The translations under genes and the position numbers were made by a program. From an uncultured Spirochaetota bacterium (GTDB lineage: Bacteria; Spirochaetota; Spirochaetia; SZUA-6; CAVTHK01): a stretch of 64,000 nt of DNA. Shown here in pieces: positions 1,197 to 24,446 of the stretch. Position 1 is the first letter of the stretch. Every line of letters starts with the position of its first letter. The stretch spans positions 256,001-320,000 of the forward strand of contig CAVTHK010000016.1 of the NCBI GenBank assembly GCA_963734495.1, in the 5' to 3' direction. The notes beneath the pieces are model-generated. The model searched no databases and was not told where the DNA came from. It worked only from the letters and a program-made list of their open reading frames with translations.

Positions 1197-2416
1197 CGAG
1201 GATCCTGCTCGAGCTCCTCACGTGCCTCCTCGCGTCCGGGTTCTTCGCCGGCCTGGAGACCGGCCTGCTGGCGGCCAACCGCATGGTGCTGCAGGAAAAA
1301 CAGCTCCGCGGCGTGCTCTACGCCCGCGCGGCCGAATACCTGCTGCGCCGCCCGGCCCGGCTGCTGGGCGTGACGCTGATCGGCACCAACCTGGCCAACG
1401 TCGCGGCGGCGGTGATCCTCACCGACTGGTTCGACCAGATCGGGCACCCGCAGCTCGCCTGGGCCGGCGTGCTCGCGCTGACCTTGGTCTTTGTCGTCTT
1501 CGCGGACCTGATCCCCAAGTCGTTCTTCCGCGGCAACGCCGACGGCCTGACCGTGCGCCTGACCCCGCTGCTGGTGGCCTTCTACTTCGTCCTGATCCCG
1601 CTCTACGCCGTGCTCAACGCGATCGTGCAGGCGATCATGCTGCTGAGCGGCCAGAACCGCGGAGGCCGCGAGGAAGTGCGGTCGCGGCGCGACCTGCGCT
1701 TCCTCGTGCACCTCGCGGGACAGGAGGTGGGGCTCTCGCGCGACGACCAGCGCATCATCGAGGACATCCTGGACTTCCGCGAGCAGAGCGCCCGGGAGGT
1801 GATGACGCCCTTCCACAAGGTCCCCGTCGTGACCCACGCTCAGAGCCTCGACGAAGTCGCCCGCGTGGCCGTCGACACCGGCTCGCGCTTCCTCCCGGTG
1901 GCGCGCGGCCGCACCGACAACCTCGTCGGCTACATCGACGCGGCGGAGCTGCTGTGGCGATCGGACGCGCGGCTGGAGTCGCTGCTGCACGAGAGCGTCT
2001 TCTACCCCGAGACAACGCCGCTCGCCGACCTGCTCCTCACGATGAACCGCAGCCACGTCGAGGTGGCCTTTCTCGTCGATGAGTTCGGCGGCGTCGCGGG
2101 CACACTCACCCCGAGCCAGATCATCGGCGACATCGTGCACTTCACGCCGGAGAGAGGGCCGCAGGCGTCGCGGATCGAGCGCGTGGCATCCGGGCACTAC
2201 CGCGTCTCCGGCGACGCCGGCGTCGAGGACCTCGGCCACGAGATCGGCCTCGTGCTCCGGCGCAGCTACAACCGCACGATCGGCGGGTACATCAGCGAGC
2301 GGCTCGGCGCCATCCCGCCGCGCGACGCGACGTACTCCGAAGGCGGCTTCCTCTTCCGGGTGACCGACCGCGACGCGCGCCACATCAAGGAAGTGGAGAT
2401 CAAGAGAGAAGGTTGA
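1193..2416 (+). CDS. CNNM/DUF21-CBS-CorC family protein, second tandem paralog
   Basis: SGFFAGLETG, LIGTNLANV, DLIPKS, AREVMTP, VDEFGGVAG, TIGGYISERLG; GTGA overlap with upstream stop. Confidence 0.9.
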   Translation: MTRILLELLTCLLASGFFAGLETGLLAANRMVLQEKQLRGVLYARAAEYLLRRPARLLGVTLIGTNLANVAAAVILTDWFDQIGHPQLAWAGVLALTLVFVVFADLIPKSFFRGNADGLTVRLTPLLVAFYFVLIPLYAVLNAIVQAIMLLSGQNRGGREEVRSRRDLRFLVHLAGQEVGLSRDDQRIIEDILDFREQSAREVMTPFHKVPVVTHAQSLDEVARVAVDTGSRFLPVARGRTDNLVGYIDAAELLWRSDARLESLLHESVFYPETTPLADLLLTMNRSHVEVAFLVDEFGGVAGTLTPSQIIGDIVHFTPERGPQASRIERVASGHYRVSGDAGVEDLGHEIGLVLRRSYNRTIGGYISERLGAIPPRDATYSEGGFLFRVTDRDARHIKEVEIKREG

Positions 2417-2476
2417 AGGCAGGCATCGGGGCGCGGCGACGCATCCGGGCACGGCGCGCGCAGGCGCCCCGGCGGT

Positions 2477-5400
2477 CTACGCCCCGCCGCCGAGAGGGCG
2501 CACGACGCGCTCGCCCTGCCTGAGGTACTTGATCCCTTCGACCGCTGCCCATGCCGCGGAGGTCGTGGTCGTGTACGGCACCTTGTGCCGGACGGCCGCG
2601 ATGCGGATCATCTCGTCGGTCTCCTGCGACGCCTTCCCGAGCGGCGTGTTGATGAGCAGGGCGATGCGGCCGCTCTTGCAGGTGGTCGACGACGTTGGGC
2701 CTGCCCTCGTGCATCTTGAGGACGACATCGGGGAAGAGCCCGTTCTCGAAGAGGAACTGCGCCGTGCCCCGCGTGGCCGCGAGCTCGAAGCCCATCGAGG
2801 CGAGCGCTCTCACGGTCGGGAGGATCGTGACGCGGTCGTTGCGGTTGACGGAGACGAACACGCGTCCCGAGGTCGGAAGCGGGCTGCCGGCGGAAGCCTG
2901 CGCCTTGGCGAAGGCTTCGCCGAACGAGTCGCCGGTGCCGATCACCTCGCCGGTGGATTTCATCTCGGGCCCGAGCATCGGGTCGCTGTCCGGAAGCCGC
3001 CCGAACGAGAACACGGCCTCCTTGACGGCCCATCCCGTCTTGCACGTGCCGGTGCCGCGGAGGCCGAGATCCTCGAGCCGGGCCCCTTCCCAGACGCGCA
3101 CCGCGGCCTCCACCAGGTTCACACCCGACGCTTTCGAGATGAACGGGATCGTCCGCGACGCGCGCGGGTTGACCTCCAGCACGTACAGCACGCCGTCCTT
3201 GGCCGCGTACTGCACGTTGATGAGCCCCTTGATCCCCGCCTCCAGCGCCATGCGGCGCGTCTGCTCCTGCAGCTCGACCAGGATGGCGGGGTCCGTCTTG
3301 AACGGCGGAAAGACGCACGCGGAGTCGCCGGAGTGGATGCCGGCCGCCTCGATGTGCTCCATCACGCCGGCGATGTAGACGCTCGCCCCGTCCGCAGATC
3401 GCGTCGACGTCGTACTCGAAGGCGTCCTCGAGGAAACGGTCGATGATCACCGGCCTGGCGGTCGTCACCCGGGGCGCCCGCTCGAGGAGGGCGTCGAGCT
3501 CGCCGCGGCTGTAGGCGATGAACATGCTGCGCCCGCCGATCACGAACGAAGGCCGCACGAGCACCGGGAACCCGATGATCTCCGCGTAGTCCAGCGCCTG
3601 CTCGCGCGAGGCGGCGGTCCGGTGAGGCGGGTAGGTGAGCCCGAGCCTGTCGGCAAAGGCGGCGAAGAGCTCGCGGTCCTCGGTGTCGAGGATCGCCCGC
3701 AGCGGCGTGCCGACGATGCGGGCGCCGGCCCTCTCCAGCTCCTCGGCCATGTTCAGCGGGGTCTGGCCTCCGAGCTGCAGGATCACGTCCTTCACGCGCT
3801 CCTTGCGCATCACTTCCTTGACCGTCTCGGGGACCAGCGGCTCCATGTAGAGCCGGTCCGACGTGTTGAAGTCCGTGGACACCGTCTCCGGGTTGGAGTT
3901 CACGATGATCGTCCTGACTCCCTGGCTCGCGGTAGGCGAAAGAGGCGAGGGTGCAGCAGGTGTCGAACTCCAGGCCCTGACCGATGCGGTTGGGCCCGCT
4001 CGCGAGGATCATCACCGCGCGCTCGCTGAAGGGCTCGCCTTCGTCGATCTCGCCCCATGTCGAGTAGAAGTAGGGCGTGCGCGCCTCGAACTCGCCCGCG
4101 CACGTGTCGACGAAGTGGAAGGCGGCCTCGATCCCGAGCTCCTGTCTCCGCCGCTCGACCTCGGCCTCATCCGTGCCGCGCAGCCGGGCGATCCGGCGGT
4201 CGGAGAGCCCGGCGCGCTTGGCCTCCAGGAGCAGGGGACGCTCGAGCCCGTCGGCGGCGATGCGCCGCTCGAGGGCGATCTGCGCCGAGATCTCGTGCAG
4301 GAACCAGGGGTCGTAGCCCGTGACCGCGGAAAGCTCGCCGATCGCGGCCTCACCGCGCTCCTTGAGCGCCTGGTAGAGCGCGAAGATGCGCAGCGGGTGG
4401 AGCGTCTCGATCATCGTCTTCAGGCGCTCGGGGGTGACGCCGGGCACCTCCTCGAGCCCCTCGTAACCGATCTCCGCGGCGCGGATCGCCTTGTTCAGCG
4501 CTTCGACAAAGGTGCGCCCGATCGCGAGGGATTCGCCCACGCTCTTCATCTGCGTGCCGAGCGTTTCGTAGCCGCGCGGGAACTTTTCCAGCTCGAAGCG
4601 GGGGACCTTGACCACCACGTAGTCCAGGCTCGGCTCGAACGCGGACACCGTGCGCCCGGTGATCTCGTTGACGATCTCGTCGAGGGTAAAGCCGACCGCC
4701 AGCCGCGCGGCGCAGCGGGCGATCGGGAAGCCGGTCGCCTTGCTCGCCAGCGCCGAGGAGCGGGAGACGCGCGGGTTCATCTCGATGATGCACATGCGCG
4801 CCGTCCCCGGCTGGATCGCGAACTGCACGTTGGAGCCGCCGCAGTCGATGCCCACGGCGCGCAGCACCTCCAGCGCCGCGGTGCGCATGCGCTGGTACTC
4901 GCGGTCGGAGAGCGTCTGCACCGGTGCCACCGTGATGCTGTCGCCGGTGTGCACGCCCATGGGGTCGAGGTTCTCGATCGAGCAGACGACCATCGCGTTG
5001 TCGTGGCGGTCGCGCATGACCTCGAGCTCGAACTCCTTCCAGCGCAGCAGCGCCTCCTCGATCAGCGCCTCGTGCGCCGGGGACTCCGACAACGCGCGCT
5101 CGGCGGACAGGCGCAGCTCCGCCTCCGTGAGCGCTATGCTTCCCCCCTGGCCTCCCAGGGTGAAGCTCGGGCGGATCACCAGAGGGAGCCCGATCTCCCG
5201 GCCGACCCGCAGCGCCTCGTCGACCTCGTGCACCACGGCCGAGCGCGGGACGTCGAGGCCGATGCTCTGCGCCATCGCCTTGAACTGGCCGCGGTCTTCG
5301 GCCTTGCGGATCGCCTCGACCGTGGCGCCGATCATCTCCACGCCGTGGCGCTCGAGGATGCCTTCGTCGTGCAGCGCGAGGGAGAGGTTGAGCCCGGTCT

Positions 5401-5677
5401 GCCCGCCCATCGTCGGGAGGATCGCGTCGGGCTTCTCCTTCCGGATCACCTGGTCCACGTATTCGCAGGAGAGCGGCTCCATGTAGACGGCGTCCGCGAG
5501 CCCGGGCGTGGTCATCACCGTCGCCGGGTTGGGGTTCACCAGCACGACGCGGTAGCCTTCTTCCTTTAGCGTTCGCACGGCCTGAGTGCCCGAGTAGTCG
5601 AACTCGCACGCCTGGCCGATGACGATCGGTCCCGAGCCGATGATCAGGATCTTCTTGAGGTCTTTGCGGGCGGGCAC
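2477..5677 (-). CDS. carB: carbamoyl-phosphate synthase large subunit, split by about 3 indels (near 3920, 3395, 2690)
   Basis: [30 protein letters not shown]; second ATP-grasp half ([24 protein letters not shown]); MGS tail ([23 protein letters not shown]) across ORFs 3362..5677, 2608..3903, 2400..3365, 2477..2728. Confidence 0.95.
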
Positions 5678-6883: not shown

Positions 6884-7093
6884 CGCTACCCCGACCATGC
6901 GGCGACAGGCTCGCGGTCGCCGCCGCATACAGAAAGAGCCGGCTTGAAGCCGGCTCTCCTCGGGCGTGCCGCCAGCCTAGTGTGCCATACTCCTTGGCTG
7001 CTGAAGCCTTGTCAACGCCCTTGTTTCAGGCCTTTTTGACGACCGGCGCTCGCGCGCAAACGTGCCGGGGTCAGTGCCCTGAGGTGTTCCCTG

Positions 7094-7471
7094 CTATCCC
7101 GACTTCGCCAACGCGGTGTTGACCGCGCTGTACAACTCCAGCACCCGGACTGGCTTCGGGATGAAGCGCACAATTCCCACGGCGTCGAGAGCCGCCATGG
7201 TGGCGGTGGATTCCGGCGAGACGTACCCGGACATCGCGATCATGGGCAGCGCCTCGTACCGTTCGCGCACGGTCCTGGCGAGCTCGATGCCGGAGACGCC
7301 CGGCAGAACCAGGTCGATGATGGCAAGGTCGAAGCTCGTGGATCCCCCCAGCACCTCGAGGGCCTGGTTGGCGTTCGCCGCGCGCCACACCTTGTGGCCG
7401 AACTTCTCCAGCATCCACGTCATGACGTGGAGCACTACCATCTCGTCATCCACGACCAGCACGTTCGCCAT
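7094..7471 (-). CDS. single-domain response regulator (CheY-like receiver)
   Basis: VLVVDDE, DLAIIDLVLPGVSG, MSG, FIPKP motifs. Confidence 0.85.
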   Translation of the reverse strand: MANVLVVDDEMVVLHVMTWMLEKFGHKVWRAANANQALEVLGGSTSFDLAIIDLVLPGVSGIELARTVRERYEALPMIAMSGYVSPESTATMAALDAVGIVRFIPKPVRVLELYSAVNTALAKSG

Positions 7472-7967
7472 CGACTTTGGATTCTCCGCTGCCGAAGCCG
7501 CAGACACTGCGGCGCAAATCCGTCGCGGAATCCTACTTCACTTTCCCGGGAAACTCAAACAAAAAAACCTCAGAAGGATCTCTGGGAAGGATCAGCAGGA
7601 TTCTCGAGGGCTGCGGCAAAGGCCACAGCGAGGAACACGACTGCAGCGCTCACGCGCGCGAAGGCGGGCGACTTGAAAGGCGCTTCCGCTCCCGTGACGA
7701 GCGCGTCGCGGAAAGGAGGAGTACCGCAAGGACCTTCAGGAGGAGCTCAAGGGCGTCGAGGAACGTATCGCGGAGATCCGATCGGTCAGCAATCAAGGGG
7801 GTCGGGGCCCCATACCCTGGTTGACCCGGCCGCCGGCGCAGTTGCGTGGCGTGGCCCGGCGCTGGCCTGACATTCTATCCGTTGCGTGTGGTTCGCATCT
7901 TTGACAGCCGGACTACGGGCGCTGATCGGGGGCGGCCGGAGACGAGGAGCGCACGTACTCCGCAAGA

Positions 7968-7993
7968 AACAAAAAGGCGGCATCCCTGCCGCC
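7968..7993 (-). terminator. intrinsic terminator after tRNA-Glu
   Basis: GGCGGCA/TGCCGCC stem followed by a T-run on the minus strand, just past the tRNA 3' end. Confidence 0.7.
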
Positions 7994-7996
7994 CGA

Positions 7997-8068
7997 TAGC
8001 CCCTAGGGGAATCGAACCCCTCTTTGAAGACTGAGAATCTCCCGTCCTAGCCGATAGACGAAGGGGCC
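7997..8068 (-). tRNA. tRNA-Glu (anticodon CTC), CCA not encoded
   Basis: Reverse complement GGCCCCTTCGTCTATCGGCTAGGACGGGAGATTCTCAGTCTTCAAAGAGGGGTTCGATTCCCCTAGGGGCTA folds as a cloverleaf with GTTCGATTC T-arm and TT-CTC-AG anticodon loop. Confidence 0.95.
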
Positions 8069-8110
8069 TCCGCTTTCGCGCTGCTTCACGCGTTCGCGTT
8101 TTCTGTCGCA

Positions 8111-8140
8111 TTTATACTGCGCACCGGCAGTTAGGGTCAA
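8111..8140 (-). promoter_or_regulatory. sigma70-like promoter of tRNA-Glu
   Basis: TTGACC-N18-TATAAA on the minus strand about 40 nt upstream of the tRNA. Confidence 0.55.
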
Positions 8141-8236
8141 GCACATTGGAGAGCGCTCTGGAATTCGCTTTCGCGTTCATTCTTGGCCTTTCCGACTATT
8201 CCGGCTACACTGGCGGCTACACGGAGGAGGCCCATC

Positions 8237-8755
8237 ATGGCTTTCTCGGAATCCCTGAGGCTCGACGTGAAGCGGCGAGCAGCCTTTCAGTGCTACCGAT
8301 GTCGGAGCATCAGTGTCCAGGTCCACCATATAGTCCCACAGGCCGAGGGGGGAGACGACACGCTCGACAACGCTGCACCGCTGTGCCCCAGCTGCCACGC
8401 CCTCGTCGGAAACGATCGGCTCAAGCGGAAGGAGATTCGCCAGATGAGGGACTGGTGGTACGAGAAGTGTGCGCCGCAATATGGATCTCAACCGCAACTT
8501 TTGGGATACCTCGAGAAGCTCAACGAAACCGTATCGTCTCTGGCCGATCGCCAGAAACGTCAGCACGAAGCGATCGGTGAGCTGAAGCGGGAGCTCATTG
8601 TGCTGATTGACAGCCAGGCTACTCGCGATCGGCATGTGGCGAAGGAGGCCGCTCGGCTCCGACATAAGACGAACGCGATCACCGTCCGCGACGCCATTGC
8701 GGTGGCGAGCGACGTGGTGTCCACAAGCACCGGCACATTTGGCGGGAGGGGATGA
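8237..8755 (+). CDS. HNH endonuclease domain protein with C-terminal helical/coiled-coil extension
   Basis: GGAGG RBS before ATG 8237; CxxC...VHHIVPQAEGGDDTLDNAAPLCPSCH zinc-bound HNH signature. Confidence 0.85.
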   Translation: MAFSESLRLDVKRRAAFQCYRCRSISVQVHHIVPQAEGGDDTLDNAAPLCPSCHALVGNDRLKRKEIRQMRDWWYEKCAPQYGSQPQLLGYLEKLNETVSSLADRQKRQHEAIGELKRELIVLIDSQATRDRHVAKEAARLRHKTNAITVRDAIAVASDVVSTSTGTFGGRG

Positions 8756-8758
8756 GGA

Positions 8759-9736
8759 ATGGCAGACTTGTCTTTCCCTCAGCGATTTGGCCTTCATGAA
8801 GGTCGTCCCATCGATGACGAGTTCCCGCAGGCCTCTCGAACTGGCCTCATGTATGTACTGCAACAGTTTGTAGAGGATGGCCTGATTAAGCGGGACGAGG
8901 ACGGGTATGCCTGGCGCTTCGTGATGATCGAGATGCTCAGGTCAAGCAAGATTCCGTTTCGCACGGTGGACCAGGCGAACCCGAAAGCCTGTAACGAGCT
9001 GCTCGCGTCGATGGAATGGCCTGACGTCTATGTGTTCTGCGAACGCGTTTTCAGCTCGCTGCTGACAGAGAAAACGCAGTACCACGATGGCGATACCCTG
9101 ATCGTTGTTTCGCTGGACCAGGTCAGACAGCGTTTTGTTTCAGAGGTAAACACTTTGCTAAGCGAGAGCAACCTCGCCTATGTCTTCAGGAGCGGACGCT
9201 TCGAAAGACCGGGCCGTCCACAGACTCAGCGCAACGTGGCAAGGGCTCAGGCTGTTCTGGCCGATCCAGCTCTCCATGCTGCTCGAGAGCACTACGCCAA
9301 GGCCCACCGTTTCTTCGGCGAACGCGCCCCTGATTTCGAGAATTCCGTCAAGGAGGCGATCTGCGCGCTTGAAGCAGCACTTGAGGTCAAGAGCGGGAAG
9401 CGGGTTTCGGCGGACTTCGAGAGAGAAGTTGCGAAGCTTTCCGGGCCGGAACCTGACAAGATACCTCCTCCGATAGCCCAAGCCATGGTTAAGATCCATG
9501 CGTACCGCGGCGGCGGAAAGGGAGTGTCTCATGGCAACACTGGAGGCCTCAAGGTCACTAGACACGAGGCCGAGCTAGTCCTCAGCGCAGCCGCGGCGTT
9601 CGTCACCTACGTGGTCGACTTCTACGAAAGCCAGGAGTCCGAGGCGCCATTCTCAGCAAGGAACCCCCGCCGTGGACGGGCTCGCCCTCGTCCCGCTGGA
9701 CTCGGCACCTTAATTGCCGATGGACACACTGGATGA
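8759..9736 (+). CDS. AbiJ-NTD4-like N-terminal domain plus Abi_C/HEPN-like C-terminal domain protein (putative abortive infection)
   Basis: FxxRFG start, WxDVYxFCE, EVNTLL..LAY, AREHYAKA..DFENSVKEAICALE, KIHAYR...GVSHG, EAELVL pattern recalled for this family. Confidence 0.6.
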   Translation: MADLSFPQRFGLHEGRPIDDEFPQASRTGLMYVLQQFVEDGLIKRDEDGYAWRFVMIEMLRSSKIPFRTVDQANPKACNELLASMEWPDVYVFCERVFSSLLTEKTQYHDGDTLIVVSLDQVRQRFVSEVNTLLSESNLAYVFRSGRFERPGRPQTQRNVARAQAVLADPALHAAREHYAKAHRFFGERAPDFENSVKEAICALEAALEVKSGKRVSADFEREVAKLSGPEPDKIPPPIAQAMVKIHAYRGGGKGVSHGNTGGLKVTRHEAELVLSAAAAFVTYVVDFYESQESEAPFSARNPRRGRARPRPAGLGTLIADGHTG

Positions 9737-9912
9737 ACGAAGAAAGCAAGGCGAGAGATCGAGGAGGGCAGCCAGCTCCTTTCGAACGATTTGAGCAGCC
9801 GCGGAATAGCCTTCCTACTCGCGAACGTTGCTGCAATGGCGGGTGCGGGATAGATCTCTAGTCCGAGAGGACTACTCCGAGGGGTCTCCGACACCGTCGG
9901 CGGAGCGTTGAT

Positions 9913-10980
9913 GTGGCCGATACCGTCACCTATCGGCAGGCCGTCACCACGATGATCACATACATCGGGATGGACCCTGCGATCTACTGGCGCGCACGCG
10001 AAGGCACGTTAGGCGAGCGAATAGGCTTGGGCCCTAGGCTGAGGGTCGACCGGCGCCAAGCTGCACGTCTTGTCGAGGTACTCCGGCAATATGTCTCTGA
10101 CGTTGAGTCGGGGCGGCTGGCCGTTGCGGGGGGAGCCCACCTGCTGGAGAAATACGTCTTCCTCGGAGAGTACGAGAAAGCGCTGGGGTTGGCCAGAGAC
10201 GATCGTGTTTTCGACATCCGGATGGCGATGAAACGACCGCTGGGCTTGGACATAGAGGGCCACGAATGCGCGACCATGTTCAGAGCGCATTCTGGCGCGT
10301 GGCAAGTGGATCTGAACGACGACGATTTCCAAGCGTTTATTGACATACAGGTGGCCTCATGGCGTGAGTTGGCCGGCGGGAACTTCATAGCTTTCGAAGA
10401 GAAGTGGCTCTACAGGACTATCGATTCCAGGCCAAAGCAAGTAGCTGAATACGTGACCCTCGTCCCGCCGATCGAGGGGTTGGTCGGCAGGAGAGGAAAC
10501 ACGATGGTTCTCCGATACTACGACCACATGGAACAGTGCTTGTCCGAGCTCGGCGTTTCGCGACTGGCGGAGACTGTCCGACAGTTTGCGAACGCGCAGC
10601 GGACAAGAAAGGGTCTCCCGCGGATAGGCGAAGGCTGGGTGTCGGAGACCGCACTCTATCAGTCCATCAAAGCGAGATTCCCGGCTCTGAAGATCGTGCA
10701 GCACGCTCGGCCTATGTGGCTTGAACCGCAGCACATAGATGTGTTCTTGCCCGAGATAGAGTTGGCGGTCGAGTATCAGGGCAAGCAGCAGCACGATCAA
10801 CCTCTGAAGTACTTTGGCGGCAAGAAAGCACATGCAGCGCAGCGGAAGCGAGATGCCCGCAAGAAATCTCTTTGTCAAGAACACGGCGTCCTACTGCTCG
10901 AAGTTGTTCCCTACTACGACTTCGAACAAGTAGCCGCGCAAATCGCGGACAGAATCCGTACGCACGGAATCGTCAAGTAG
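9913..10980 (+). CDS. hypothetical protein with C-terminal PD-(D/E)XK/DUF559-like nuclease domain
   Basis: WVSETALY...QHIDVFLPEIELAVEYQGKQQH...RDARKKSLCQEHGVLLLEV (D...ExxG.xH, RDxxK motifs). Confidence 0.65.
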   Translation: MADTVTYRQAVTTMITYIGMDPAIYWRAREGTLGERIGLGPRLRVDRRQAARLVEVLRQYVSDVESGRLAVAGGAHLLEKYVFLGEYEKALGLARDDRVFDIRMAMKRPLGLDIEGHECATMFRAHSGAWQVDLNDDDFQAFIDIQVASWRELAGGNFIAFEEKWLYRTIDSRPKQVAEYVTLVPPIEGLVGRRGNTMVLRYYDHMEQCLSELGVSRLAETVRQFANAQRTRKGLPRIGEGWVSETALYQSIKARFPALKIVQHARPMWLEPQHIDVFLPEIELAVEYQGKQQHDQPLKYFGGKKAHAAQRKRDARKKSLCQEHGVLLLEVVPYYDFEQVAAQIADRIRTHGIVK

Positions 10981-11099
10981 GCTCACAACCCCTCTTCATT
11001 CTTGCGTTTCAGTCGAGACCATCATCGTCCTGCCCTAGACGCGTTTGCTGGTGATCCACACGATGGCTTAGAATGGGCGCGAGAGAGGTGGAGATAACA

Positions 11100-12881
11100 A
11101 TGAGGCGAAGACTGGCAGCCCTCACGCTACTTCTGGTGGCCAGCGCTCTCTCTGGCGGGCCCGTGGAGGACGCCCAAGCCGCCTACGACCTGGGCGACTA
11201 CGCTGCCGCGATGCAGTTGTGCCTCCCACTCGCCGAGAAAGGCAACGCTGAAGCTCAGTACAACGTCGGCCGTATGTACTTCAAAGGCGAGGGCGTGGCC
11301 CAAGAGTACGCCGAGGCGAAGAAGTGGTGGCTCCAGGCTGCCACCCAGGGGCTCCCGATTGCCCAGTACTGCCTGGGCTTGATGTACGCTGACGGTCAAG
11401 GCGTGGCCCAAGACTACCTCACGGCTGCGTTTTGGTTTCGCGGTGCAGCCAATCAAGGTAACGTGCACGCGCAGGCGGCACTTGGCTATCTCTACTACAA
11501 CGGGTTGGGTCTCGCTTGCGACTATGTCGAGGCCGCGAAATGGTACCGCAAAGCTGCAGAACAGGGCGTTGCGACAGCGCAGAGCGACCTCGGGCTTATG
11601 TACGAACTCGGACGGGGTGTGTCTCAGGACTACACCGAGGCGGTCAAATGGTACCGCAAGGCGGCCGAACAGGGAGAAGCATTTGGGCAACTACGGCTCG
11701 GCCTGATGTACTACGAGGGCCGGGGCGGCGTGCCTCGCCTCTACACTGAAGCCGCAAGGTTGTACAAACTCTCCGCCGAGCAGGGCAATCCATTTGCCCA
11801 ACTTAACCTCGCGTGGAGCTACCTTGACGGCAAGGGCGTACCCCAGAACCGGTCCGAAGGAATAAGGTCGTACGAGTTGGCGACCCAGCAAGACTGGCTA
11901 TTGGCTTCTTTCGCCCAAACGAGCCTTGGCAATATCTACGCCAAGGCGAGTGATTATGCCAACGCGATAAGGTGTTACAACCTGGCCGCTGATCGAGGCT
12001 GGGGGGAGGCCCAACTCAATCTGGGTGATATCTACGCCGAAGGCAGAGGCGTTCCGCAGGACCTTGCTGAAGCCCACAAATGGTACAACTTGGCGGCGGC
12101 TTCAAATTACTTTGGGGCGGCTGCGCGCCGAGATGGCATTGCCGCAAAGATGACTCAGGAACAACTGGCTGAGGCCGAGAAACGCGCACTGGTGTGGAAG
12201 CCGTGGACGCATACGGTCAATATCACGGTCGCCACCGATGCGACGTGGCCGCCGATGGAATTCGTCAACGGCGCTAAGGAGATCGTCGGCTTCGACATCG
12301 ACCTGATGAAGGCCGCGGCCAAGGCGGGCGGCTTCCAGGTGGAGTTCAAGAACACGGCGTGGGACGGCATCTTTGCCGGTCTCGCCAACGGCGAGTACGA
12401 CGCGGTGATCTCTTCGGTGACCATCACCGAAGAGCGTAAGCAGACGATGGACTTCTCGGTTCCGTACATCAACGCGGGGCAGGTGCTCGTGGTGCGCTCG
12501 GACTCCAGAGCGGCGAAGCTCGCCAACCTCACCGGTAAGAACGTCGGCGCCCAAATCGGCACCACCGGGGCCGTCGAGGTCGAGAAGGTCAAGGGCGTGA
12601 CGCTCAAGACCTATGACGAGCTCGGGCTGGCCATCGAGGACCTCTCGACCGCGCGCATCGACGCCGTGGTCTGCGACAGCCCGATCGCGGCGAACTACGT
12701 CCTTCAGAACCCGACCTACAGGGGCAGGCTCAAAATCGTCGGTCAGCCGTTCACGCAGGAGCTCTACGGTGTTGCGGTCAGGAAGGGAAACACCAAGGCG
12801 CTCGAGGAGATCAATGCTGGCCTGAGGAAGGTGCTCGAGTCTCCCGAGTATCAGCGGATCAAGACAAAGTGGCTCCCGTGA
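11100..12881 (+). CDS. exported Sel1-repeat protein fused in frame to a basic amino acid ABC substrate-binding domain
   Basis: Signal peptide MRRRLAALTLLLVASALS; repeated AQxxLGxMYxxGxGVxQD..EAxKWYRKAAEQG; then VATDATWPPMEF, GFDIDL, WDGIFAGL, VGAQIGTTG. Confidence 0.85.
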   Translation: MRRRLAALTLLLVASALSGGPVEDAQAAYDLGDYAAAMQLCLPLAEKGNAEAQYNVGRMYFKGEGVAQEYAEAKKWWLQAATQGLPIAQYCLGLMYADGQGVAQDYLTAAFWFRGAANQGNVHAQAALGYLYYNGLGLACDYVEAAKWYRKAAEQGVATAQSDLGLMYELGRGVSQDYTEAVKWYRKAAEQGEAFGQLRLGLMYYEGRGGVPRLYTEAARLYKLSAEQGNPFAQLNLAWSYLDGKGVPQNRSEGIRSYELATQQDWLLASFAQTSLGNIYAKASDYANAIRCYNLAADRGWGEAQLNLGDIYAEGRGVPQDLAEAHKWYNLAAASNYFGAAARRDGIAAKMTQEQLAEAEKRALVWKPWTHTVNITVATDATWPPMEFVNGAKEIVGFDIDLMKAAAKAGGFQVEFKNTAWDGIFAGLANGEYDAVISSVTITEERKQTMDFSVPYINAGQVLVVRSDSRAAKLANLTGKNVGAQIGTTGAVEVEKVKGVTLKTYDELGLAIEDLSTARIDAVVCDSPIAANYVLQNPTYRGRLKIVGQPFTQELYGVAVRKGNTKALEEINAGLRKVLESPEYQRIKTKWLP

Positions 12882-13012
12882 AGGCCGGACCCGTCCTCGC
12901 CGGGACCGGAAGCCTGTTCGATGTGCTGCGCCCGTGTCGCTATGCCGCAGGCGGGGCAGTTTTCTCCGATTTGTGGGGGAATCTGATGCCTCCGCCTCCG
13001 CGCCGTGTGTCT

Positions 13013-13303
13013 TCACGGCTGCGGCCCTGACCGCCTGAATTCGCCGGGCCTGCTCCTCGGTCCGAGGGCCGCCCGTTGGGCCGCAGCTCCATGCTCTTTC
13101 GGTGTCAGCGCCCCGTAGCGAAGCCCGAGCGCGAGCTCCGTGTAGCGAGCGGCGACGGCCAGACGCTTGGCCCTCGACAGCCGGCACCGGCGCTCTGGAT
13201 CGTCGGGATGGGCCTCGAGCGGCTCCTGGTAGCCCGGGTGCAGCGGGCAGTTGTTGACCGCGCAAGTCTTGAACCGCGGGCAGGCTTCGGATAGTTGAGT
13301 CAC
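13013..13303 (-). CDS. small Cys-containing hypothetical protein (MGE-like)
   Basis: GAGG RBS and GTG start overlapping the upstream stop (GTGA); CPRFKTCAVNNCPLHP...C motif. Confidence 0.5.
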   Translation of the reverse strand: MTQLSEACPRFKTCAVNNCPLHPGYQEPLEAHPDDPERRCRLSRAKRLAVAARYTELALGLRYGALTPKEHGAAAQRAALGPRSRPGEFRRSGPQP

Positions 13304-13460
13304 TCGTTAACCTCTGTCTTCTCGAGCAGGCCGGTCACGGCGCAGCGGAGGGACACGCCCTGCTCGGCGCAGGCTCGCTCGAGCGCCTCGCCGAGTTCGG
13401 GCGGGAGGTTGAGGTTCACGATGGGATCCGTCCTTGCGCTTTCCGCCAAGGGAACGTCGA
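13300..13460 (-). CDS. small ribbon-helix-helix/CopG-like DNA-binding protein (start uncertain)
   Basis: IVNLNLPPELGEALERACAEQGVSLRCAVTGLL matches the RHH beta-helix-helix pattern; coupled to the downstream ORF. Confidence 0.45.
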
Positions 13461-13537
13461 CCAGGTCGCCGGCGGCCTCCACGGCTCGGCGAACGGCACC
13501 CGGCGTCAAGAGATTTGAGCATCCGAGCCGAATTGTC

Positions 13538-13567
13538 CGCTGTTGTGCGCTGTTGCGCGCTGTTGCG
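13538..13567 (+). repeat. three tandem 10-bp direct repeats CGCTGTTG(T/C)G
   Basis: cgctgttgtg-cgctgttgcg-cgctgttgcg read directly. Confidence 0.8.
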
Positions 13568-13914
13568 CCGTGGGTTCGCTCGTACGATGATGCCCGCACA
13601 GCGGTGTCGTTCCCCTGAAACTGCGCGGCTCCTGTTGCGGCGGGGCTGCGGTCGGGCCAGCGAAGGGTCGCCTGGGGCCCTTCCTCGTGCCGACCCCAGC
13701 GAGGACGACTCAGGGCAAAAGGGAGGCCCATGGCAGGCGCACTCGCTTGCCACGGTACACAGCGATGGGCAGGTGGAGTGCTGCCCGACGCTCCCCGCAC
13801 CCGAGCTGATTATATGAAGACGCTGCGCCCCTGAAGACTGAGAGCAGCTTGCCGGTCACGCTGGTGAACCGCGATAATCTTCCGTGACTCCGCAGCAACT
13901 CTCGGGGGACAACC

Positions 13915-14277
13915 ATGGCAACGTTGGTGGAACGCGCAACAGTCATCCTGGCGGCCGGCAACATGCCGAAGAGGATCGAGGAGCTCGTCGGGCGCGTCAA
14001 CACTGGGACAGGCGACCTTAGCATCGCGCACATGCGCAGCCCGTCCGGATGGGTCGAGCCGGGACAGACGCCCGAGTTCGCGGAATACTCGGTCGTGCTT
14101 GCGGGCACCCTGCGGGTGACGACGCGCCAAGGTGTCGTCGACGTCCGCGAAGGGCAGGCGGTGATGGTGTCGGCGGGAGAGTGGGTTCAGTACAGCACTC
14201 CGTTTCCTTCCGGAGCTGACTACCTGTCTGTCTGCATCCCCGCGTTCTCGCCGGAATCGGTGCACCGGGACGCGTGA
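13915..14277 (+). CDS. cupin domain protein
   Basis: PGQTPEFAEYSVVLAGTLRV, GEWVQYSTP, YLSVCIPAFSP. Confidence 0.85.
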   Translation: MATLVERATVILAAGNMPKRIEELVGRVNTGTGDLSIAHMRSPSGWVEPGQTPEFAEYSVVLAGTLRVTTRQGVVDVREGQAVMVSAGEWVQYSTPFPSGADYLSVCIPAFSPESVHRDA

Positions 14278-14409
14278 GGCATGCGGTCACCGCCTGCCGC
14301 CCGCAACGCCCGCGCCCGCTGCGTTCCCCGCAAGAAGGTCGAATCGCGCTGGCCCAAGTAGTGGCCCGAAAACATCAGGGCCGGGCGGCTCAATCGAGGA
14401 GGCAGTCGC

Positions 14410-15495
14410 ATGGAAGCCGATGTCTACCGTGATCTGGCCGAGCACCTCGATCGCCTTGGAGGCCTGCCTCCGAGCGAGACCGGGGCGGAGATCCCGATGC
14501 TCCGGGCCTTGTTCACGCCCGAGGAGGCCGCCCTGGCGATCAGGCTGACGCCGAGGCCGGAAACGGCGGCCGCCATCGCGGGCAGGACCGGGATCGACGC
14601 CGCGGCGGTCGAAACGAGCCTGGAGGCCATGGCGCAGAAGGGACTCGTCTTCGACGTTCGTCCGGCAGCGGGGGCGCCCCTGTACCAGGCCGTGCCGTGG
14701 GTCGTCGGCGTATGGGAGTTCCAAGTCGATAACCTGAGCAAGCGGCTGGTCGACCTGGTCGCAGAGTACAACAGGACCAGGCCGAAGGGCGCCCGGCCGC
14801 CAACAGCCGGCCAGATGCGGGTGATCCCTTCGGTAGCCAGCGTCGAGATCCGGCCCGTCGCGCTCCCTTACGAGATGGCGGACAAACTGGTGGAAGCGCA
14901 CACCCGATTCGCCGTGGCGCCCTGCATATGCCGCCGCAGGGCCAGGCTGCAGGGGCAGGGCTGCGACGTTCCGGACGAGTCGTGCCTGCTCTTCGGCGAG
15001 TTTGCCGATTTCTATGTCCGCACCGGCCGAGCGAGACCGCAAACCCGCGAACAGATCATGGAGCGCCTGAGGCGGGCAGACGAGTCGAACCTCGTTCTCT
15101 CGCCGAGCAACTCGAAACGCATCTCGTTCATCTGCTGCTGCTGCGGGTGCTGCTGCGGAGTGCTGCGCAGCCTCCGCCTTCGGCCTGATCCCGGCGACCT
15201 CATCGGCAGCCCGTTCATTGCCGCGCTCTCGGTCGACGACTGCACCGGATGCCTGACCTGTGTCGACCGGTGTCAGATGAAGGCTCTCGCCGCGGAAGCC
15301 GACAAAGTCAGGCTCGACCGCCGGCGATGCATCGGCTGCGGGCTCTGCGCGTCGACCTGTCCCGCGGACGCCCTGCATCTGGAGCGTCGCCGGCTGTCGA
15401 CGCCTGCGGAAATGCCGGCCGACCTCGCTGAGACATGGCTGCAAGCCGCGCAGGCACACGGCTGGAAGGCGCAGGCCCGACAGGAGACGCCATGA
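14410..15495 (+). CDS. 4Fe-4S dicluster-binding protein with N-terminal winged helix
   Basis: CICR, ICCCCGCCCG, CTGCLTCVDRC, CIGCGLCASTCP; GGAGG RBS. Confidence 0.85.
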   Translation: MEADVYRDLAEHLDRLGGLPPSETGAEIPMLRALFTPEEAALAIRLTPRPETAAAIAGRTGIDAAAVETSLEAMAQKGLVFDVRPAAGAPLYQAVPWVVGVWEFQVDNLSKRLVDLVAEYNRTRPKGARPPTAGQMRVIPSVASVEIRPVALPYEMADKLVEAHTRFAVAPCICRRRARLQGQGCDVPDESCLLFGEFADFYVRTGRARPQTREQIMERLRRADESNLVLSPSNSKRISFICCCCGCCCGVLRSLRLRPDPGDLIGSPFIAALSVDDCTGCLTCVDRCQMKALAAEADKVRLDRRRCIGCGLCASTCPADALHLERRRLSTPAEMPADLAETWLQAAQAHGWKAQARQETP

Positions 15496-16262
15496 GGTAC
15501 ATCGATCCGCTCGTCATCATGCGCGCTCGGGCGCAGGGCGCGGCGCTCCCATCCTGGCAGGCCGCCGTGATCGTGTTCCACGGCCGGGCACGGTCGCGGG
15601 CCATCGTGGAGCGACTCGGCGGACGCCCAATGACCCACACTGTCTTCGCCGGCCTGGAGCCCTCCGAGGTGCTGAGCACGACTTGCGGCGGCCGACCCGT
15701 GGGAATCCTTTGCAGTGTCGGCCGCCAGGCGGGCGGCGGGCCTCTCGCGGCGGCGCTCGTCGAGGAGCTCTCGTCTATCGGAGTCCGATGGATCCTGGGG
15801 CTGGGATGCGCCGGTTCGATCGACCCGTCCGTTCACCGCGGGTCTCAGTTCGTCATAGCGACGGCCCTCGCAACGGACGGCACGAGCCGAAGCTACCTCG
15901 GTACGGCCGCCGCAGCGACGCCGGACGAGACCATGCTGCAGGCCGCGGCCGCGATCGAGAAGCGGCGCGGCCGCCCGATACCGAGGCTCACTGCCGCGAC
16001 GGTCGACGCAATCTACCGCGAGACTCCGGAAGCCGTAGCCCGCTGGCGCGGAGCCGGCGCGCACATCATCAATATGGAGGCCGCGCCGCTCTATGCGGCC
16101 GCACAGGTCTGCGGTGCGCGTGCCCTCTACGTCGGGCATGTGAGCGACGAGCTGCACGGGCCCGAATGGAACGCCTGGTTCGGCGGCGACCGGGGCCCGA
16201 TGGCCGCGGAGAGCGCGGACATCGCCGCCGGCATCCTCGCGGAGGTGCTGGCCGGCGGATAG
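15492..16262 (+). CDS. nucleoside phosphorylase (PNP/UDP family)
   Basis: LVEEL..IG, LGCAGSI, DGTSRSY, TVDAIYRET, INMEAAPLY, VSD; ATGA overlap with upstream gene. Confidence 0.8.
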   Translation: MRYIDPLVIMRARAQGAALPSWQAAVIVFHGRARSRAIVERLGGRPMTHTVFAGLEPSEVLSTTCGGRPVGILCSVGRQAGGGPLAAALVEELSSIGVRWILGLGCAGSIDPSVHRGSQFVIATALATDGTSRSYLGTAAAATPDETMLQAAAAIEKRRGRPIPRLTAATVDAIYRETPEAVARWRGAGAHIINMEAAPLYAAAQVCGARALYVGHVSDELHGPEWNAWFGGDRGPMAAESADIAAGILAEVLAGG

Positions 16263-16388
16263 CTGCTTGCCGTCGTCCCGCCGCAGGGTCATACTTTCCG
16301 CGTGATCGCGGCGAGACAGGGGGGCCATGACGGGTGAGTCGCTGCGCCGGCCGAGGGTCGTGGCGGCCCCGCGGCAAGGAGATGACGC

Positions 16389-16784
16389 ATGATGCTCGAG
16401 AAGACCGCGCACACGTTCGAGGTGCTGGATCTGCGATGCAGCAGGTGCGGGAAGAGCTTCCGGCACTACAGGCCGGAAGCGGAGATGGAGCACTGCGACT
16501 CGACGGTGTGCATATGCACCGGGTGCGGCAGGCTGTACTGCCTCAGCCTGTGGGAAGACGGCCCAACGCACCAGGTACTCAGGTCGATCCGCCGCGATTG
16601 CGGCGGCCGCCTCGAAGCGGAAGCCTCCATGATCGCGAAGCTGCTCCCTCGCTGCGGCTGCGGGGCTCCGATCGCGGTCTATGGCGAGCTGTGTCCTTCG
16701 TGCGGATCGCACAACCACGTGACCATGGGGGTGACCATGGAAACGCACGACGTCTCGCCCCTCAGCCTCGCCGGGGGCGCGTGA
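16389..16784 (+). CDS. Cys-rich zinc-ribbon hypothetical protein
   Basis: CSRC, CICTGC, CGCG, CPSC pairs; AAGGAG RBS. Confidence 0.6.
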   Translation: MMLEKTAHTFEVLDLRCSRCGKSFRHYRPEAEMEHCDSTVCICTGCGRLYCLSLWEDGPTHQVLRSIRRDCGGRLEAEASMIAKLLPRCGCGAPIAVYGELCPSCGSHNHVTMGVTMETHDVSPLSLAGGA

Positions 16785-17302
16785 CGCGGGCATCCATGCG
16801 CACGATCCGCTCTCGCGTCGCCCTGGTCATCCTGGTGGCCGCTGCGACGTTTGCCTCCGACCAGGCTGCCAAGCATCTTGCCCGCGCATACCTGCGCGGG
16901 GCGGGGACGGTGAGGGTCGTCGGCGACCTGCTCATCATGACGTACGCCGAGAACGACGGAGCGTTCCTCAGCCTGGGGCACGGCTGGCCGCAGCCCCTCA
17001 AGCTCGTCGTCTTCTCGGGCCTCTCGGCGATCGTGGTGACGGCCGCTTTCGCGTGGGCCGCGGCAAACCAGCGCCTGGATCCCCTTCAGGTCTTTGCGTT
17101 GTCCCTGATCGCCGGAGGCGGGCTTGGCAACCTGGTGGACCGGGTAACACACGGCGGCCGCGTCACGGACTTCCTGAATGTCGGAGTGGGGATATTGCGA
17201 TCGGGGGTGTTCAACCTCGCGGACATGTACCTGCTCGCGGGAATGGTCCTCATTCTCCTTGCGAGCGGAAAGTCGCGAGGGTCAATCAGGCGAGGATGTT
17301 GA
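16781..17302 (+). CDS. lspA: signal peptidase II (lipoprotein signal peptidase)
   Basis: DQAAK, ENDGAFLS, GGGLGNLVDR, VTDFL, VFNLAD motifs; start GTG 16781 or ATG 16796. Confidence 0.9.
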   Translation: MTRASMRTIRSRVALVILVAAATFASDQAAKHLARAYLRGAGTVRVVGDLLIMTYAENDGAFLSLGHGWPQPLKLVVFSGLSAIVVTAAFAWAAANQRLDPLQVFALSLIAGGGLGNLVDRVTHGGRVTDFLNVGVGILRSGVFNLADMYLLAGMVLILLASGKSRGSIRRGC

Positions 17303-17480
17303 CAATCGTGCCCATCTCGGGCGGGAACGCACCCTGCTGTTGCTGCTGCTGCCAGGCCCAGAGGGCCCCGGTCTGCGTGTTGTTGCCCTGGCCGTTGACC
17401 GGCTCGGAATCCCGGAACGTCTGCAGCGGGGTCGGGTTCAGGACGTACCGGCTCGCCATGCTGTTGGTGTCGATCGTCAT
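17286..17480 (-). CDS. small hypothetical protein with poly-Gln and YjfB-like C-terminus
   Basis: 64 aa ORF ending PPEMGTIVNILA; host-like codon usage. Confidence 0.4.
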   Translation of the reverse strand: MTIDTNSMASRYVLNPTPLQTFRDSEPVNGQGNNTQTGALWAWQQQQQQGAFPPEMGTIVNILA

Positions 17481-17574
17481 GGGAACAATGTACCCATCGG
17501 GCCGTTCGGCGGCAAGGCGGCCTATCGCACGCTAGGGCGCACGAACAGGCGCCCGGGGAAGGCAGACGGGCCTT

Positions 17575-18141
17575 TCAGCCCAGGGTCACGAGAGCCCGAG
17601 GAAGATTGTTGAATATGAAGTCGACCGTCTCCGCCTCCGTCAAGCCCGAGCTGTCTACCCAGAGACCGACATGGGGGGTCTCCGTCCGGAGGACGCGGTC
17701 GAAGCTCGCGATCGCGTCGGGGCTGCCATAGCCCTTCTTGTTCCGAGCCCCTTCCCGCGAGGCGATCGACTCGGCGGACGGGCACAGCACCACAACGTGC
17801 GGGCGCCGGCCCTCGTAGAGCGCGAGCACCTCGCTGAGCCCGCTGCCTATGATGATGTCCTGGTAGACGACGGAAAAGCCCGCGTCGAGGTAGAGCCCCG
17901 CGACCGTCGCGGCCGCCCGGTAGCGAAGGCGCAGCTGCGCGACCGCTTCGTCGGAGAGCTCGAACCCCATCTCCGCCCTGCCGCGGACGATCATCCTCCG
18001 GAAGACGTCGCCTCGCAGGTGCACGCTTCGCGGGATACGCTCTGCGACCAGTTGGGCAACCGTGGACTTGCCCGCTGCCATGATTCCCGTGATCAGGATC
18101 AGCTTCGGCGCCCCGGCCTCCGGGGCGCCTTTTGTTTCCAT
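17575..18141 (-). CDS. AAA/P-loop kinase (phosphotransferase-like)
   Basis: ILITGIMAAGKST Walker A, HLRGDVFRR; ATG 18141. Confidence 0.8.
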   Translation of the reverse strand: METKGAPEAGAPKLILITGIMAAGKSTVAQLVAERIPRSVHLRGDVFRRMIVRGRAEMGFELSDEAVAQLRLRYRAAATVAGLYLDAGFSVVYQDIIIGSGLSEVLALYEGRRPHVVVLCPSAESIASREGARNKKGYGSPDAIASFDRVLRTETPHVGLWVDSSGLTEAETVDFIFNNLPRALVTLG

Positions 18142-18251
18142 GGCCGCCATCTTAGGCGAGGCGGCCGTCGCGCGCAATCGCGGGCAGCGTTTCGGAATGT
18201 GTCGGGATGCCCGCGATTGACACGGACGGCTCCCGCGGGTACGCCGTTCGC

Positions 18252-18710
18252 ATGCGCAGGACCGAAAAGATGATCGGCGACCCCGCCCGCGTCGAGCGCC
18301 TGCTCGAGCAGGCCGGCGTTTGCCGGATCGCCTGGAACGGGAGGCCGTTCCCCTATGTCGTGCCCGTCAACTTCGCCTGCAGGGGCCGCACGCTCTACTT
18401 CCATTCGGCGCTGGAGGGCGAGAAGCTCGATCGCCTGCGCGAGGACCCGCACGTCTGCGTCGAGGTCGACGAGCAGCTCTCCATCCGGCCGGGCGACGCA
18501 CCGTGCTCCTGGAGCGCGCGCTACCGCAGCGTGATCGCCCGCGGGACGGCATCGCTCGTGCGCGACCCCGCCGAAAAGGCAGCCGCGCTCGAGCTGCTGC
18601 TGCACAAGTACTCCGGCCGGCCCGGCTGGTCCGTTCCGGCCGCCTCGCTGGACACGGTTGCCGTCGTGGCCATCGACCTGGGCGAGCTCACGGGCAAGGA
18701 ATCGCTGTAG
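18252..18710 (+). CDS. pyridoxamine 5'-phosphate oxidase family flavin-binding protein (NimA-like)
   Basis: MRRTEK start, PYVVPVNF, YFHSALEGEK, YRSVIARG, LTGK. Confidence 0.85.
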   Translation: MRRTEKMIGDPARVERLLEQAGVCRIAWNGRPFPYVVPVNFACRGRTLYFHSALEGEKLDRLREDPHVCVEVDEQLSIRPGDAPCSWSARYRSVIARGTASLVRDPAEKAAALELLLHKYSGRPGWSVPAASLDTVAVVAIDLGELTGKESL

Positions 18711-18772
18711 AGCGGGGCTTGCGAGACGCGCGCTTGTCGAGTCGATCGCGGGCGTGATAATCTCGCCTCACC

Positions 18773-19655: not shown

Positions 19656-19680
19656 AAGGGCAGGACCGGAGAGGTCAATA

Positions 19681-20502: not shown

Positions 20503-20514
20503 GCGCGCTGTCGC

Positions 20515-21102: not shown

Positions 21103-21111
21103 GGCAGCCTC

Positions 21112-21169
21112 ATCAAATTGATTTGATATATATCGATCTAATTATACATACATCGAATCAGGGCGTCAA
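21112..21169 (-). promoter_or_regulatory. sigma70 promoter with downstream inverted-repeat operator (likely ArsR autoregulation)
   Basis: TTGACG(21169-21164)-N17-TATAAT(21146-21141); inverted repeat ATCAAAT-tg-ATTTGAT at 21112-21127. Confidence 0.75.
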
Positions 21170-21228
21170 GCGCTGGCGGGCACGGGAGCCGGTGGACACT
21201 GCTGTCGGCCAGCGGCTACGGTGGCGCC

Positions 21229-22593: not shown

Positions 22594-22780
22594 GGCGAAA
22601 ACAGCGGGGCCCGGCGGCATTGTCGCCTCCCGGGCGCCACATAGACGTATCGGGCCTCCCGGCGTCAAGAGGCGTGAGCGGACCTGACAACCGTGTGGCT
22701 CCCTCCGGCGATTTGACCGTCAGGCGTGCAGAACTGCAGAATATGGCTGTTGGGCAGGCTTCGAGAAGGAGACCGGCTCC

Positions 22781-23782: not shown

Positions 23783-23831
23783 TCAGCGAAAGAACACCGG
23801 CATGCGCAACGATGTCGCACGAGGCAAGAAA

Positions 23832-24359: not shown

Positions 24360-24365
24360 GAAACC

Positions 24366-24436
24366 CTGCCCGGGAAGGGCTCGAACCTCCACAACAAGAT
24401 CCAGAGTCTTGCGTGCTACCATTACACCACCGGGCA
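24366..24436 (-). tRNA. tRNA-Gln (anticodon CTG), CCA not encoded
   Basis: Reverse complement TGCCCGGTGGTGTAATGGTAGCACGCAAGACTCTGGATCTTGTTGTGGAGGTTCGAGCCCTTCCCGGGCAG; cloverleaf with CAAGA-CT-CTG-GA-TCTTG anticodon arm. Confidence 0.95.
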
Positions 24437-24446
24437 ACTAAAACGA

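Follow-up and report, generated by a model that had tools for sequence, protein, structure and literature searches.

Three neighbouring nuclease-type genes in a tRNA-linked variable region of an uncultured Spirochaetota bacterium: probably solo defence-type genes

Linkage of the three genes

Do three nuclease-type genes that lie in a row near a tRNA gene make up one anti-phage system, or have unrelated genes come to lie side by side? The question is raised by positions 8237-10980 of a 64,000-nucleotide (nt) stretch of contig C16 from an uncultured Spirochaetota bacterium (assembly of 5.4 Mb, 83% complete), hereafter the window. The three open reading frames (ORFs) found there are all on the plus strand, as a preliminary description of this DNA had stated. 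ORF1 (8237..8755, 172 amino acids (aa), ATG start after GGAGGAGG) has an HNH head and a helical/coiled-coil tail, and ORF2 (8759..9736, 325 aa), which begins 3 nt past ORF1, combines an AbiJ-NTD4-like region with a HEPN fold. A spacer of 176 nt (9737..9912) separates ORF2 from ORF3 (9913..10980, 355 aa, GTG start), in which a helical N-terminal region precedes a Vsr/DUF559-type PD-(D/E)XK nuclease. The preliminary description proposed a small defence island, possibly with a two-gene HNH+HEPN system. Our results point to a different answer: the locus is probably a tRNA hotspot at which three solo defence-type genes, unrelated and separately mobile, have accumulated, and we do not regard them as a system because their families lack conserved linkage.

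The observations comprise the domains, the modelled folds (ORF2 and ORF3), the conserved catalytic-type residues, the foreign codon use and the missing linkage. The G+C content at third codon positions (GC3) is 0.72, 0.66 and 0.69 in ORF1, ORF2 and ORF3, compared to 0.80-0.95 in 10 host-type genes of the window, which bears out the earlier remark on A/T-ending codons and is the reason for calling the genes foreign. All catalytic-type residues are retained, and ORF1-3 are real, intact-looking, foreign genes. No methyltransferase, ATPase or cas gene is present among ORF1-3 and the next gene, again as described before.

Linkage was assessed by running three family profiles across all six frames of every locus in a set of 221, which includes 80 HNH loci (the best 80 of 100), 80 ORF2 loci (the best 80 of 120), 27 ORF3 loci and 9 more. 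Outside this genome, two of the families were not found together in any of the 221 loci. ORF2 or ORF3 relatives were present in 0/80 HNH loci, ORF1 or ORF3 relatives in 0/80 ORF2 loci, and either partner in 0/27 ORF3 loci from other genomes. Flanking sequence is limited in many metagenome loci: at least 1 kb downstream is available in 72/80 HNH loci and at least 600 nt upstream in 44/80 ORF2 loci, which sets the 95% upper bounds on pairing at 4% for the HNH loci and 7% for the ORF2 loci. A search of 400 genomes from the phylum found the ORF3 family in 14, the ORF2 family in 7 and the ORF1 family in 1, and apart from the present genome none holds two of the three. Pfam searches on 150 of the 153 nearest neighbours of HNH genes detected no AbiJ_NTD or Abi_C domain, and no neighbour family recurs beyond 4/80 HNH loci.

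The proposed two-gene system could be a DNase and RNase pair, or one protein could restrain the other. The 3-nt gap, which is as first reported, the common strand, the similar GC3 and the GGGAGGGG inside the 3' end of ORF1, which resembles a ribosome-binding site ahead of ORF2, all fit such a system, and ORF1, which is without the usual zinc-ribbon tail of its family, could depend on a partner. However, equally short gaps (5-21 nt) separate family members from unrelated neighbours in four of the loci (L001, L010, L011 and L012), and PDC-S32, the candidate that ORF2 matches, is catalogued as a single gene. Given these points and the pairing counts above, we consider a two-gene system highly improbable. 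The preliminary description had counted homologues of the HNH and AbiJ-like genes that are never adjacent among the findings that would refute it, and in the loci searched outside this genome none were adjacent. A two- or three-gene system was rejected on the missing linkage in the loci and the 400 genomes. The 3-nt gap permits co-translation of ORF1 and ORF2 and is not proof of partnership; more generally, defence-type genes spaced this tightly need not form a system. A promoter scan found one site compared to 1.5 expected, and none ahead of ORF1.

The three proteins and their families

The preliminary description recognised no named system, but ORF2 matches the PADLOC single-gene candidate PDC-S32. 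The match reaches E 1.4e-25 (aa 5-289 on profile positions 9-281 of 285) and 4.7e-17 and covers more than 90% of both profiles, an assignment based on the profile match rather than on PADLOC's own score rules. Nine of 10 scanned ORF2 relatives match PDC-S32 at E<=1e-15, the exception being a fragment of 200 aa. The AbiJ_NTD4 match of ORF2 (PF18863; E 9e-7, profile 17-149 of 152) scores 29.9 bits, below the cut-off of 34, and precomputed PF18863 annotation is found on 19/21 ORF2 matches, including ORF2 itself. The Abi_C match (E 0.003, 18.2 bits) is also below its cut-off of 24. A structural model from 18 sequences, with a mean predicted local distance difference test score (pLDDT) of 83, places a HEPN fold at aa 168-293 (Z 11.5; root mean square deviation (rmsd) 3.6 over 115 aa for 2hsb and 2.8 over 112 aa for 1ufb), which agrees with the HEPN-like label given earlier. 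Nine of the top 10 rows in the fold comparison are HEPN or HEPN-containing, where we take the Roquin and AbiA rows to be HEPN-containing, and the best clearly unrelated row has Z 6.6, although helical bundles may reach such Z by chance. Foldseek gave nothing at E<=0.001 and returned the same HEPN proteins at E ~0.5. The motif R250-x7-H258 is present in 77/80 loci, which were not chosen by motif, and lies in a loop of low model confidence.

In common with PDC-S32 and AbiJ-NTD4 + HEPN proteins, ORF2 has a whole-length profile match, solo occurrence elsewhere, and an AbiJ-NTD4-like region joined to a C-terminal HEPN fold. Proteins in which AbiJ-NTD4 precedes an AbiJ-family HEPN domain have been described, and the two parts were proposed to act as a sensor and a suicide RNase (PMC3710099). 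It differs from them as a divergent subfamily with Gly after the Arg of R-x7-H and 27 extra C-terminal residues. AbiJ of Lactococcus and SadR of Staphylococcus are likewise single genes with an N-terminal domain and HEPN, and they serve as our working model for ORF2. SadR is an Abi_C protein that cuts RNA and requires the R and H of its motif for defence; this motif is R-x6-H with Asn after Arg, one residue shorter than in ORF2 (PMC13590631). For AbiJ itself no mechanism is known (PMC13064643). The prediction of PDC systems was based on their position inside BREX, DISARM and Type I restriction-modification (R-M) loci (10.1101/2024.01.29.577857), and a later report treats them as unvalidated (10.1101/2025.01.08.631726). 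Our literature search, with most subscription papers outside its reach, found no paper on PDC-S32 and no test of a protein of this kind in the papers naming AbiJ-NTD4, CBY_0614 or STM4504.

In the proposed mechanism, the AbiJ-NTD4 domain of ORF2 would sense a phage component and restrain the HEPN domain, and two HEPN domains would form an RNase site from R250/H258, cut RNA and abort infection. Judging from its domains, the ORF2 family is fairly likely to be such a sensor-gated HEPN RNase acting by abortive infection. ORF2 was also compared with AbiJ in the strict sense and this was rejected, as the PADLOC AbiJ model (E 0.0055 across 36 aa only) and the Abi_C model both fall short. The NCBIfam model STM4504/CBY_0614 scores 12.6 against a cut-off of 150.

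The HNH domain of ORF1 is clear (PF01844, E 3.5e-10, 40.3 bits compared to a cut-off of 21.4), in line with the preliminary description. Its zinc-binding HNH head contains C19, C22, H30, H31, N45, C50, C53 and H54, and the HNH/zinc residues are invariant across 38 aligned family sequences. Across 302 ORF1 relatives the first ~75 residues are strongly conserved and the remainder is variable. Clustering the tails of the 77 proteins longer than 130 aa from the 80 loci gave eight groups (31, 12, 10, 6, 3, 2, 2 and 2 members) and nine singletons, and the tail of ORF1 falls in none of the groups. Pfam searches on 27 of the tails returned one TPR and three weak zinc-ribbon matches, and no match for the others. 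The library matches of ORF1 are confined to the HNH domain, and the corresponding Atlas clusters bear generic HNH names only. None of five scanned family members matches a PADLOC model at E<=1e-15, ORF1 has no match among plasmids, and the literature search described above found no paper on this HNH family.

The best solved relatives of the ORF1 family profile are the HNH domains of IscB (E 3.6e-9) and the Type IV enzyme EcoKMcrA (McrA, E 1.6e-8), which bind zinc as in ORF1, but these matches span the HNH domain only (31-64 residues). IscB has a RuvC domain whereas ORF1 does not, and the IscB model scores 29 bits compared to a cut-off of 175. A McrA-like Type IV enzyme was rejected for ORF1, since the HNH starts at about residue 19 with no modification-reading domain ahead of it and the mREase_IV match covers 31 aa only. 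ORF1 would be a zinc HNH DNase that oligomerises via its helical tail, cuts invading or host DNA and often acts as a back-up beside R-M. From its domains, we rate this proposal as slightly short of an even call. At the family level, a plug-in HNH head of ~80 residues would be combined with at least eight exchangeable C-terminal tails, which may be sensors, and dropped into R-M operons and behind tRNA genes. With a single nuclease joined to many tails, the family forms a natural series that could show whether the tails set the trigger.

Two C-terminal domains, of ~200 and ~150 aa, recur fused to the HNH head, and their scanned members are without a Pfam match. The first is found in L029, L038, L048, L056, L057, L059, L066, L070, L079 and L080, and the second in L031, L032, L052, L060, L061, L069, L071-L075 and L078. 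In addition, the public gene call for ORF1 (P0022) is only 103 aa long and has no HNH annotation, as would fit a start placed at Met70. ORF1 is thus probably mis-annotated in databases.

ORF3 has a weak DUF2726 match (E 1.7e-4, below cut-off) and matches none of the PADLOC or NCBIfam models at E<=1. Its structural model (82 sequences, pLDDT 81, with the nuclease domain mostly above 90) agrees at aa 239-354 with 3hrl (Z 10.9, rmsd 2.4 over 90 aa) and with Vsr (1cw0, Z 10.1, rmsd 2.8 over 107 aa). The conserved set of E, D and E-x-Q-G-x-x-H is present as E245, D276, E287, Q289 and H294; within the family E245, Q293 and H294 are invariant, and D276 and E287 nearly so. By the modelled fold and these residues, ORF3 belongs with the Vsr/DUF559-type PD-(D/E)XK nucleases, which substantiates the PD-(D/E)XK-like C-terminus first described. 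The C-terminal fold is also like that of DUF2726 nucleases and I-Bth0305I, whereas the adjacent dcm methylase of the Vsr-type setting is missing. The N-terminal part is helical and gives weak TPR-like fold matches only (Z ~6).

Most close ORF3 relatives match only its C-terminal third, and the nearest Atlas clusters are unnamed. With the family profile (378 positions), 1,473 representatives are recovered at E<=1e-30, and the 150 best mostly match it over its full length. A TerB_N match is present in 7/30 scanned members, and some members have HEAT, LRR or TPR extensions. ORF3 might couple a helical sensor to a Vsr-like nicking DNase, and across the family a TerB_N/TPR-like helical sensor would be joined to a Vsr-type nickase in more than 1000 divergent representatives. 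Based on the domains, a sensor-gated Vsr-like nickase is a tentative assignment for ORF3.

Other interpretations of ORF3 were considered and rejected. Shango consists of the TerB-like SngA, the ATPase SngB and the helicase SngC, and TerB_N is a domain as in SngA, but ORF3 has no TerB or TerB_C domain and there is no ATPase or helicase among the adjacent ORFs. A frameshifted upstream part was dismissed, as 41 relatives gave no significant tblastn match upstream of 10135, and the first 120 residues of ORF3 returned no rows in a phmmer search against the family. A sensor domain common to ORF2 and ORF3 was rejected at a profile comparison probability of 0.3%. The literature search gave no paper linking TerB, DUF559 and anti-phage function, and a search for TerB_N gave only unrelated work.

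Several features of the three proteins might indicate that the segment is a decaying remnant of a larger island whose copies no longer work. The conserved part of ORF2 ends at F298 (nt 9652), and the last 27 codons are a read-through with non-coding-like composition. Pro-Phe-stop ends 17/17 aligned homologues and 72/80 loci, while the next codon in ORF2 is Ser, so the stop has been lost. ORF1 lacks the C-terminal zinc ribbon found in 27/80 of its relatives and its tail matches no other, ORF3 begins at profile position 61-68 so that the first ~60 positions are absent, and the spacer contains an orphan 38-codon open stretch (9737-9850) without start codon or Pfam match, possibly a gene remnant. 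The failure to find an integrase or an att repeat, described below, fits decay as well. On the other hand, the catalytic-type residues are all retained, and short-tailed ORF1 relatives and short-headed ORF3 relatives exist. Genes are also split over several frames elsewhere in the assembly, namely carB (2400-5677, -), a HAD hydrolase gene (21597-22593, +) and a binding-protein paralogue on contig C10 (41529-42217), which suggests indel errors and indicates that base errors are common in this assembly. An assembly error is therefore a plausible explanation of the missing ORF2 stop as well; if the read-through tail is real, this copy of ORF2 may be impaired. Overall, we find decay unlikely.

Defence neighbourhoods and rival readings

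If the three genes are solo defence-type genes, each would most likely act alone as a sensor-plus-nuclease defence protein, and their relatives can be viewed in their own surroundings. The nearest neighbour is an R-M gene in 8/80 HNH loci, three of which share one arrangement. ORF2 relatives adjoin Pycsar PycC, PD-T7-1, retron RT-Toprim, Type ISP, HsdR_N and Abi_2 genes, and 3/16 well-flanked ORF2 loci have a credible defence neighbour (PycC at 40 nt, PD-T7-1, and RT-Toprim with PDC-S35). Six of 44 ORF3 plasmid loci were viewed, and in each the gene is solo and in a mobile setting. In one it is opposite a patatin-ThiF-JAB operon, which is CBASS-like going by names, and in another it lies near a methylase and HipA. 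The families are moderately associated with defence. With regard to the defence island first proposed, the foreign DNA, the defence-type domains and the ORF1 and ORF2 relatives beside known defence genes stand, and the notion of one system does not.

Some of these loci are worth describing individually. In L001 (1619-6197), an ORF1-family gene lies between Type III mod and res with gaps of 5 and 7 nt, and in L012 (1689-3579), as in L024 and L036, such a gene lies between a BsaWI-type restriction endonuclease and an N4/N6 methylase. The genes in L001 and the L012-type loci are good candidates for first testing. In L147 (5125-7505), an ORF2-family gene is located 40 nt behind Pycsar PycC and 9 nt ahead of an unassigned 215-aa gene, and is possibly embedded in the Pycsar locus or its effector. 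L158 (2118-6162) holds an ORF2-family gene between carA and carB, in the pyrimidine operon.

A number of observations weigh against the reading as solo defence-type genes. HEPN genes of other families adjoin the HNH gene, upstream, in 3/80 loci (DUF4145 at 21 nt in L011, HepT in L033, and L076), a point that would also favour a two-gene system. In L088, an ORF2 relative is followed by an HNH gene that is built differently. We read these four adjacencies as the usual mixing in defence regions. Enrichment near HNH genes was evaluated at PADLOC E<=1e-15 in the 50 HNH loci flanked on either side by 3 kb or more, using genes from a simple ORF finder (near genes cut at 450 aa, distal genes at 400) and 150 distal genes drawn at random from 153. 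The raw matches, 23/199 near compared to 12/150 distal, do not differ significantly (p 0.29). A significant difference appears only after filtering (16, or strictly 12 in 12 loci, of 199 compared to 1-2 of 150, p 0.002-0.009), where generic kinase, ATPase, TatD, oxidoreductase and non-DNA methyltransferase matches were removed by judgement. No credible defence neighbour was found within two genes in 38/50 well-flanked HNH loci and 13/16 ORF2 loci, and only 2/6 of the viewed ORF3 plasmid loci have defence-type neighbours. The R-x7-H spacing of ORF2 equals or exceeds the longest spacings among described HEPN motifs (R-x(4-6)-H). ORF1-3 are candidates with a predicted anti-phage function.

The same data bear on whether the HNH gene and the Vsr-like gene might be passengers, selfish or neutral, either homing-type nucleases or promoter-trailing cargo, in which case ORF2 would be the only one of the three to defend, if it does. 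In favour of passengers, the neighbours in most HNH-family loci are housekeeping genes or of unknown type, and the raw enrichment is not significant. Homing endonucleases are among the best viral fold matches of ORF3, I-Bth0305I scores Z 9.6 to its nuclease domain, and many PHROG matches are HNH or homing endonucleases, in the nuclease domain only. Conversely, HNH-family genes occur embedded in R-M operons, one HNH head with at least eight kinds of tail is what would be expected of sensor-effector proteins, and there is no conserved flanking target gene, the largest recurring neighbour cluster comprising 4/80 HNH loci. We consider passengers somewhat unlikely, yet a more serious alternative than decay, and the two overlap each other.

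Under the preferred reading as solo defence-type genes, the locus itself is ordinary, with such genes stacked at a tRNA hotspot, and its value is as a pointer to three testable single-gene candidates. The main interest lies in ORF1 and ORF3, which could represent two widespread single-gene anti-phage families unnamed in the libraries searched, a possibility we put forward with caution. PDC-S32-like proteins are catalogued and unvalidated, and the ORF2 subfamily adds an unusually spaced HEPN motif.

The tRNA site and flanking genes

The variable region in which ORF1-3 are found is bounded on the left by tRNA-Glu(CTC) (7997..8068, -), followed by a terminator-like hairpin at 7994-7975, and on the right, 16.3 kb away, by the 3' end of tRNA-Gln(CTG) (24365..24437, -). 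The two tRNA genes are less than 100 nt apart in 7/7 relatives from other families in which the tRNA-Glu region was fetched, 6.5 kb apart in the congener G001 and 16.3 kb apart here; 8069-24364 is therefore a gap that gathered genes behind tRNA-Gln. G001 and the present genome have three genes of the gap in common, and ORF1-3 are absent from the gap in G001. The location beside tRNA-Glu given in the preliminary description thus holds as a link to a tRNA-associated variable region, but tRNA-Glu is on the minus strand with the genes pointing away from it, and the bounding 3' end is that of tRNA-Gln.

No copy longer than 12 nt of either tRNA was found elsewhere in the window, and no integrase was found on this contig with one tyrosine-integrase query (from L020), whose matches were confined to contigs C1 and C11; the search did not extend to other types of recombinase. 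An island integrated at tRNA-Glu was ruled out by the position of the genes on its 5' side and by the missing att copy. In 4/80 loci an HNH relative is found no more than 150 nt from a tRNA, and in two of these it is directly behind tRNA-Gln. In L011 (5011-7570), tRNA-Gln is followed by an unassigned 303-aa gene, the DUF4145 HEPN gene and an ORF1-family gene with gaps of 27 and 21 nt. This row resembles the present locus with other partners, the ORF1-family gene being third behind tRNA-Gln.

Downstream of ORF3, the low-GC3 stretch takes in the Sel1 portion of the following gene and ends at ~12200. This chimeric Sel1/SBP_bac_3 gene (11073..12881, +) marks the right end of the stretch: its first part, in which a start resembling a signal peptide precedes Sel1 repeats, has foreign codon use (GC3 0.69) and is fused in frame to an amino-acid-binding SBP_bac_3 part with GC3 0.88 and 88% nt identity to the copy on contig C10. 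Foreign DNA and a duplicated host gene appear to have been joined here recently. On the other side, the interval between tRNA-Glu and carA (7071-7990) holds a lone response-regulator gene (7094-7507, -) and ~480 nt without a recognised gene, and tRNA-Glu is much nearer to carA in several relatives. A second low-GC patch (22781-24188, +) adjoins the 3' end of tRNA-Gln and has no DNA match in the locus of the congener. Its ORFs are presumably a 333-aa uroporphyrinogen-decarboxylase-like and a small monooxygenase-like gene. Finally, short minus-strand ORFs at 12900-13850, one with a weak ribbon-helix-helix match (E 0.03), are possibly a mobile-element remnant.

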